Source: Escherichia coli (GTDB lineage Bacteria; Pseudomonadota; Gammaproteobacteria; Enterobacterales; Enterobacteriaceae). Taken from it: a stretch of 486 nt of DNA. Positions 256-486 of the stretch are shown here, piece after piece. The number at the start of each line of letters is the position of its first letter. Position 1 is the first letter of the stretch. Below the pieces are notes generated by a model that saw only the letters and a program-made list of their open reading frames with translations, did not search any database and was not told where the DNA came from. Location: the NCBI RefSeq assembly GCF_003334765.1, contig NZ_QOWT01000120.1. The stretch is one strand, 5' to 3'. A program made the translations under genes and the position numbers.

Positions 256-486
256 TTATGAGGTGGTTGCGGGTGCCAGTGTCGGATAAACAGCCATATA
301 AACGTAACCACAGGAGCCGAGGGTGTCGGCTTCACAGGCCAGCCCCTTCGCATACAGTGTCACGGTATGCTGATGGCGGGGATTCAGTTCACCGCTGGTG
401 AGCATGAGCTCCAGTTGTTTCATCAGCAGCGGAAAGGCCTGGTCCAGGTGGTACGCATCTGCATCGCTGAACAGGCCTCTGATACC
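256..486 (-). CDS. cbeA: CbeA-family type IV antitoxin (YeeU/YfjZ/YafW-like), C-terminal part; the 5' end of the gene lies beyond position 486
   Basis: Reverse-complement translation in frame from 486 down to the TAA stop at 258..256 gives [76 protein letters not shown] (76 residues plus stop, no internal stop). This matches, from memory, the C-terminal half of K-12 YeeU (...[46 protein letters not shown]...). The gene sits directly upstream of the toxin on the same strand, the canonical antitoxin-then-toxin order. Confidence 0.9.

Follow-up and report, generated by a model that had tools for sequence, protein, structure and literature searches.

The window, by which we mean the whole stretch of 486 nucleotides of Escherichia coli DNA analysed here, spans the boundary between the two genes of an ordinary type IV toxin-antitoxin pair, cbeA/cbtA (yeeU/yeeV), which belongs to a genomic island of E. 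coli, with the end of the antitoxin gene and the beginning of the toxin gene on the minus strand. Its features are the following:

256..486, minus strand: 3' part of a cbeA/yeeU-family type IV antitoxin gene, the last 76 codons and the stop codon TAA at 258-256 (from the translation)
259..279, minus strand: variable C-terminal tail LAPATTS, antitoxin residues 118-124, after the conserved domain end ...VYPT
210..255, minus strand: antitoxin-toxin spacer of 46 nt
1..209, minus strand: 5' part of a cbtA/yeeV-family toxin gene, ATG at 209-207, 69 codons (from the translation)
165..170, minus strand: toxin codons 14-15, TGC TGC (Cys-Cys; from the translation)
78..333, minus strand: probable minimal recombination (gene-conversion) tract, ED1a-type in a K-12-type backbone (from a three-way alignment)

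Read codon by codon, the minus strand from 285 to 256 encodes PTLAPATTS followed by a stop (P at 285-283, S at 261-259, TAA at 258-256), exactly where the preliminary description had located an unusual antitoxin tail; P116, T117 and the stop codon are the part of 256-285 that lies outside the tail proper. The full antitoxin has 124 codons and is known to RefSeq as WP_001605875.1, which in the matching genome is annotated as cbeA and accompanied by a 'TA system toxin CbtA family protein' (WP_000854692.1). A 100%-identical copy from a complete genome, locus L001, has the antitoxin at 11857-12231 and the toxin at 12278-12655, and was used wherever full-length genes were needed.

Rfam gave no match anywhere in the window, and in the promoter and terminator scan the spacer contained no candidate of either kind. 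The sole promoter-like hexamer pair (331-358, plus strand, antisense to the genes) and the sole hairpin from the terminator scan, which lies within the toxin coding sequence, were both rejected, as such sites occur at chance-level counts. An antisense open reading frame of 47 aa (258-401, plus strand) was likewise dismissed, being opposite the conserved antitoxin coding region and without support; it and the promoter-like pair, which also faces that region, are probably meaningless.

The full-length antitoxin of L001 matches the Pfam family PF06154 with E = 6.9e-54 over residues 18-117 (model positions 1-100 of 101), and is closely related to the YeeU structures in PDB, with E = 3.6e-79 for 2INW and 2.3e-78 for 2H28, and with E about 2.5e-41 for 2EA9 and 2JN7. 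In alignments with the K-12 paralogues it shows 93% protein identity to CbeA, 66% to YfjZ and 63% to YafW, and the toxin shows 90% to CbtA, 63% to YpjF and 58% to YkfI. Identity is thus far higher to CbeA/CbtA than to the other two pairs, and therefore both fragments belong, as judged from sequence identity, to one and the same paralogue group, YeeU/YeeV; whether toxin and antitoxin would fall together was a question raised in the preliminary description. The toxin frame lies on the same strand and starts 46 nt downstream of the antitoxin gene, and PF06755 is recorded for the ED1a equivalent of the toxin gene. The YfjZ/YafW subgroup, whose members have 105 aa, no N-terminal extension, the tail QR and a 20-nt spacer, was considered and rejected: the antitoxin of the window locus has a 14-residue N-terminal extension and a 7-residue tail, and its identity to YfjZ and YafW is 63-66%. 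A scan of the full-length antitoxin and toxin from L001 with NCBIfam HMMs matched no family, while PGAP names both proteins, the names presumably coming from a non-HMM rule. An AlphaFold2 model of the antitoxin is of low confidence (mean pLDDT 54.7, pTM 0.49, from a 38-sequence alignment), and disorder of the tail is not readable from it.

In four genomes with a 99.8-100% match (ECCWS199, CREC-544, FDAARGOS_1261 and YD786) the island that carries the pair is inserted at tRNA-Phe (pheV, beside yqgA); the pair lies at the end remote from this tRNA gene, where the island adjoins kps capsule genes or yghD/gsp. The gene order there is antirestriction-radC-DUF987-cbeA-cbtA-DUF5983 (pseudogene)-DUF957-DUF4942, and none of the four genomes inspected has the pair in the CP4-44 position, which runs from flu-yeeR-yeeS-yeeT to yeeW-yoeF-tmaR. 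Downstream of the toxin, DUF5983 (yeeW-like; L001 12652-12828) is annotated as a truncated pseudogene in all four. The pheV island of ECCWS199 is heavily eroded (L001 8574-10434), with the integrase and a DUF932 gene present as pseudogenes and the Ag43 region missing. Elsewhere, loci L039-L045 have an extra frame of 214-227 aa between the DUF987 gene and cbeA, which has no Pfam match and is absent from the window locus and from K-12.

The tail does differ from that of K-12 YeeU, as the preliminary description proposed: K-12 CbeA ends ...LAVYPTPEMKN, YfjZ and YafW end ...YPTQR, and the C-terminal end of YagB is different again, so the tails are not identical across paralogues. The ending PTPETKK, which the preliminary description gave approximately for K-12, is not K-12's but belongs to a frequent allele elsewhere, being the commonest tail (22) among the 80 cluster representatives from the protein search that have a recognisable C-terminal motif; PTPEMKN follows with 14, and PTLAPATTS is found in 3. 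The same 80 representatives carry 35 distinct tails, stop-loss read-throughs included, which bears out the suggestion that tails vary between copies; PTPAPATTS, PTPAAPATTA, PTPATATTS, PTPAAPAITV, PTPGTKT and PTPETESNPPE are further examples. Nor does the divergence from K-12 begin only at the tail, for the final 20 domain residues already contain five substitutions relative to K-12 CbeA (T98A, K100E, S105G, D108G and L112M).

The PTLAPATTS tail is an ordinary thing: a common and already catalogued allele of a short C-terminal extension. One of its three representatives, cluster P0006, alone stands for 1,485 member sequences, and the crystallised Shigella flexneri homologue (PDB 2INW) has the near-identical tail PTPAAPATT of the same class. 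A query of 86 bases, running from the tail codons through the spacer to the start codon of the toxin, detects tail and 46-nt spacer in 1,529 of the 5,426 complete E. coli genomes, 582 of the records having at least 99% identity; the K-12-type segment, taken together with relatives of about 89% identity, is present in 4,478 genomes. Sequence related to the window is present in 4,911 of the 5,426 complete genomes, with a median of 3 and a maximum of 12 such places in one genome. It may be asked whether such a tail could come from a sequencing or assembly error, or from a recent frameshift lengthening the frame, as read-through or frameshifted family members do exist in databases (P0002, P0022, P0063). 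The probability of this is negligible. Sequencing error is excluded because at least 24 independent complete E. coli genomes carry all 486 bases of the window at 100% identity, the frequency of the tail class and its presence in the crystallised protein refute an artefact equally, and alignment of the tail alleles shows codon-length indels instead of a frameshift. In that alignment, which is suggestive only, the DNA of APATTS and of PETKK/PEMKN tails differs by such indels and in where the frame first meets a stop codon; the T-T codons ACC ACC of the window tail, for instance, align with in-frame codons after the stop of a PETKK allele.

The tail starts past the end of the Pfam domain (residue 117) and therefore lies outside the CbeA domain model. 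Diversity was taken as the mean pairwise difference per site over 21 distinct YeeU-type haplotypes. The gene cores have values of 0.01-0.09, whereas the tail reaches 0.43-0.48 and the spacer 0.26-0.44 (tail and spacer together being window 274-210), and a second peak of 0.18-0.29 lies at toxin codons ~7-20. The tail stands at the edge of a hypervariable stretch to which the spacer and toxin codons 1-27 also belong. That it appears to evolve about as fast as the adjoining non-coding spacer points to weak constraint; the tail is presumably without function, or it may have a role in stability, localisation or partner choice.

The origin of this particular tail becomes apparent when the pair is compared along its length with that of K-12. 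Sliding identity between L001 and K-12 CP4-44 is 97-100% from radC to about antitoxin codon 95, then collapses for about 230 bases, which run from the 3' end of the antitoxin gene across tail and spacer into the toxin gene as far as codon ~28, and past that stretch the rest of the toxin is again 100% identical to K-12. The gene body matches K-12 cbeA at 30/30 in nearly every 30-nt window of L001 11860-12129, and DNA that is 100% identical to K-12 cbeA/cbtA covers most of antitoxin codons 1-95 and toxin codons from about 50 to 110. The K-12-type 3' end, PTPEMKN with an 88-nt spacer, is absent, and the segment found in its place is essentially unalignable with K-12. The copy in strain ED1a shows the reverse pattern, with 70-93% identity to the window locus in the 5' part of the antitoxin gene, ~98-100% in the segment that diverges from K-12, and lower values again afterwards.

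When the window locus is aligned jointly with its counterparts in K-12 and ED1a, there are 119 informative sites across cbeA-cbtA. All 25 sites in the gene body of the antitoxin are K-12-type, 72 of the following 74 are ED1a-type, and 17 of the final 20 are again K-12-type, the three exceptions being among the last four sites; thus 72 ED1a-type and 2 K-12-type sites lie inside the tract, as against 3 and 42 outside it. In a maximum chi-square analysis the best two-breakpoint partition gives 98.6, a value which none of 300 permutations reaches (the largest permuted value is 24.9). The tract would have at least 256 bases (333-78) and at most about 318 (347-30), with junctions between 347 and 333 and between 78 and 30, both inside the window, and would take in the final ~25 codons of the antitoxin with its tail, the whole spacer of 46 nt and codons 1-44 of the toxin. 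A comparison of three sequences cannot by itself name the recombinant, and the direction rests on the identity to ED1a, about 98% inside the patch and only about 90% outside; this much greater similarity within the tract suggests a K-12-like recipient and an ED1a-type donor tract. Converse and intermediate arrangements are also found. Locus L012 is apparently the mirror image, with the 5' end of the antitoxin and the C-terminus of the toxin ED1a-type and the tail, spacer and toxin N-terminus K-12-type, and L010, L039 and L044 are mosaics with other breakpoints.

From these patterns we conclude that the gene is a mosaic of a K-12 cbeA/cbtA-like backbone and an ED1a-type patch, and not a separate old paralogue; the simplest reading, in our inference, is that a K-12-like module received a short ED1a-type tract by homologous recombination. 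In this scheme an ED1a-type sister module would donate about 256-318 bases by gene conversion to a recipient whose backbone is otherwise identical to K-12 cbeA/cbtA, and the tail, the spacer and the N-terminal codons of the toxin would arrive together. Taken as a whole, namely as an ordinary cbeA/cbtA pair whose tail is a common allele brought in by an ED1a-type tract and is neither a mark of paralogue divergence nor a determinant of pairing, this reading has in our estimate a probability of roughly 85%.

The preliminary description had gone another way and suggested that the copy is another island-borne paralogue, not yeeU itself, with antitoxin tail and toxin N-terminal variation reflecting co-evolution within a cognate pair. 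As to location it was right, for in the four genomes mentioned the locus is in the pheV island and not in CP4-44; as to a separate lineage, the K-12-identical backbone and the mosaic structure speak against it. An association of the kind expected from co-evolved specificity does exist among the 21 haplotypes, where tails of the APATTS type, with the 46-nt spacer, always precede toxins of the DTHVRE class, PEMKN tails, with the 88-nt spacer, always precede toxins of the VLPGQ class, and the combination of an APATTS-type tail with a K-12-type toxin N-terminus was not found. Yet tail and toxin N-terminus co-vary because they are 46 bases apart in one exchanged tract, and such tight linkage would suffice as an explanation, without proving an absence of selection. 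Moreover, the DNA of both genes agrees fully (100%) with K-12 cbeA/cbtA outside a patch of about 300 bases, DTHVRE or DTHVRA-class toxins are found also behind the unrelated, K-like tails and spacers PETKK, SETKK and PGTKT (89 nt) and PETESNPPE (80 nt), and the start codon of the toxin is itself the point at which the site pattern changes in L039 and L044.

What is known of the proteins leads in the same direction. CbeA, YfjZ and YafW each neutralise CbtA, YpjF and YkfI (Wen et al., PMC5371832), therefore antitoxins with quite different tails, PEMKN or QR, are interchangeable against all three K-12 toxins. As cited in PMC5624674 and PMC5371832, CbeA was reported by Masuda 2012 not to bind CbtA and to bundle FtsZ and MreB, and it is for K-12 CbeA only that those citations give the type IV mechanism. 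By homology to K-12 CbeA, the antitoxin of the window would act by stabilising FtsZ and MreB polymers without binding the toxin, which would thereby be neutralised indirectly, and with such indirect neutralisation the tail would not be expected to determine pairing. Linkage, the loci that separate tail from toxin class and cross-neutralisation, taken together, therefore leave co-evolution unsupported, and a distinct, separately evolving island paralogue with co-evolved cognate determinants, already weakened by the mosaic pattern that the sites suggest, appears to us very improbable.

A different question is whether the variability of this region is itself maintained by selection. Residues 1-25 of the window toxin are of the variable DTHVRE class, and residues 26-69 are identical to K-12 CbtA at 43 of 44 positions. 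Where K-12 CbtA has Ser14-Arg15 the window toxin has Cys14-Cys15, and R15C in K-12 CbtA abolishes the CbtA-MreB interaction (PMC5624674). Cys15 is present in 15 of 15 DTHVRE-class haplotypes examined; at codon 14, seven of them have CGC (R), three TGC (C), three AGC (S) and two GGC (G). It can be supposed that diversifying selection, acting through toxin translation, MreB binding or escape from antagonists, keeps the tail, the spacer and the toxin N-terminus variable, and that recombination merely spreads the variants. The sharp localisation of the diversity peak would fit, as would a codon that has all four nucleotides in its first position (R, C, S, G) beside the MreB-determining position 15, and a crude pN/pS that falls from 0.39-0.60 in toxin codons 1-27 to 0.18-0.39 in codons 28-110, the value for antitoxin codons 18-95 being 0.13. 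All these ratios, however, are below 1, so that they fit relaxed constraint and give no sign of positive selection in the segments compared (the tail is too short and too rich in indels for this test); it is the non-coding spacer and the tail that are most diverse, indels included; and the reverse change, C15R in YpjF or YkfI, is without effect (PMC5624674). We regard diversifying selection as quite unlikely to be the cause.

In a related and still improbable form, the ~150 bases from the tail through the spacer to the first ~25 toxin codons may be a selected diversity hotspot that short gene-conversion tracts move between island copies. If this were true, the cassettes would set properties of the toxin, for example loss or gain of MreB targeting via residues 14-15, and the length of the spacer could alter the toxin to antitoxin expression ratio. 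DTHVRE-class toxins, which are common in nature, carry Cys15, and this may matter when results obtained with K-12 are extrapolated to pathogenic strains.

Among the database sequences we also observed in-frame CbeA-CbtA fusions (P0047, P0048, P0055, P0062 and P0081, e.g. ...GLTCKADT/RSQLINSIDILRARRATGLM...KYPEAK), which resemble deletions joining the 3' part of the antitoxin gene to the 3' part of the toxin gene; P0048 occurs on 26 contigs. Several K-12-type loci with the PEMKN tail (among L005, L008 and L048-L052) have a toxin frame that ends early, at 87 aa, with ...SAPVPALS, and in L048-L052 no toxin gene is called, the toxins being apparently frameshifted and leaving an orphan antitoxin.

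The importance of the locus as such is small, the two proteins being catalogued RefSeq members of a well-studied family and the tail allele frequent. The small result that can be drawn from the sequence comparison is a short recombination tract that crosses from one gene into the other and has its two breakpoints within the window, and its practical meaning is that in the CbeA family the C-terminal tail is unfit for assigning a copy to a paralogue or a locus, because short tracts shuffle tail, spacer and toxin N-terminus between near-identical modules.

Of the known systems, CbeA/CbtA of K-12 in CP4-44 resembles the window in its Pfam families, in the protein identity of 93% and 90%, and in the flanking genes radC/yeeS, DUF987/yeeT and DUF5983/yeeW. 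It is unlike the window in having the tail PEMKN instead of LAPATTS and a spacer of 88 nt instead of 46 (the K-12 spacer lengths, 88 nt for cbeA-cbtA and 20 nt for yfjZ-ypjF and yafW-ykfI, are given also in PMC5371832), in a toxin of which only 14 of residues 1-25 are identical to those of the window toxin, with Arg and not Cys at position 15, and in its place between flu and yeeX, whereas the window-type locus is at the pheV island beside kps/yghD.

The ED1a pair (CU928162.2, cluster P0006) is alike in precisely the opposite parts: the tail PTLAPATTS is identical, the spacer has 46 nt, and 23 of 25 residues agree in the toxin N-terminus, while the N-terminal region of the antitoxin reads HETNYPDDNNDR and that of the window locus PGTTLPDDNHDR, DNA outside the patch differs by about 8-10%, and the chromosomal context is a different one, with OMP decarboxylase and PTS EIIA genes adjoining. 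YfjZ/YpjF (CP4-57) and YafW/YkfI (CP4-6) share with the window the families, the gene order and toxins with Cys at position 15, but they have 58-66% identity, antitoxins without the N-terminal extension, the tail QR, and a spacer of 20 nt against the 46 nt of the window. YagB, the K-12 orphan, has a C-terminal end of another kind and no toxin partner.
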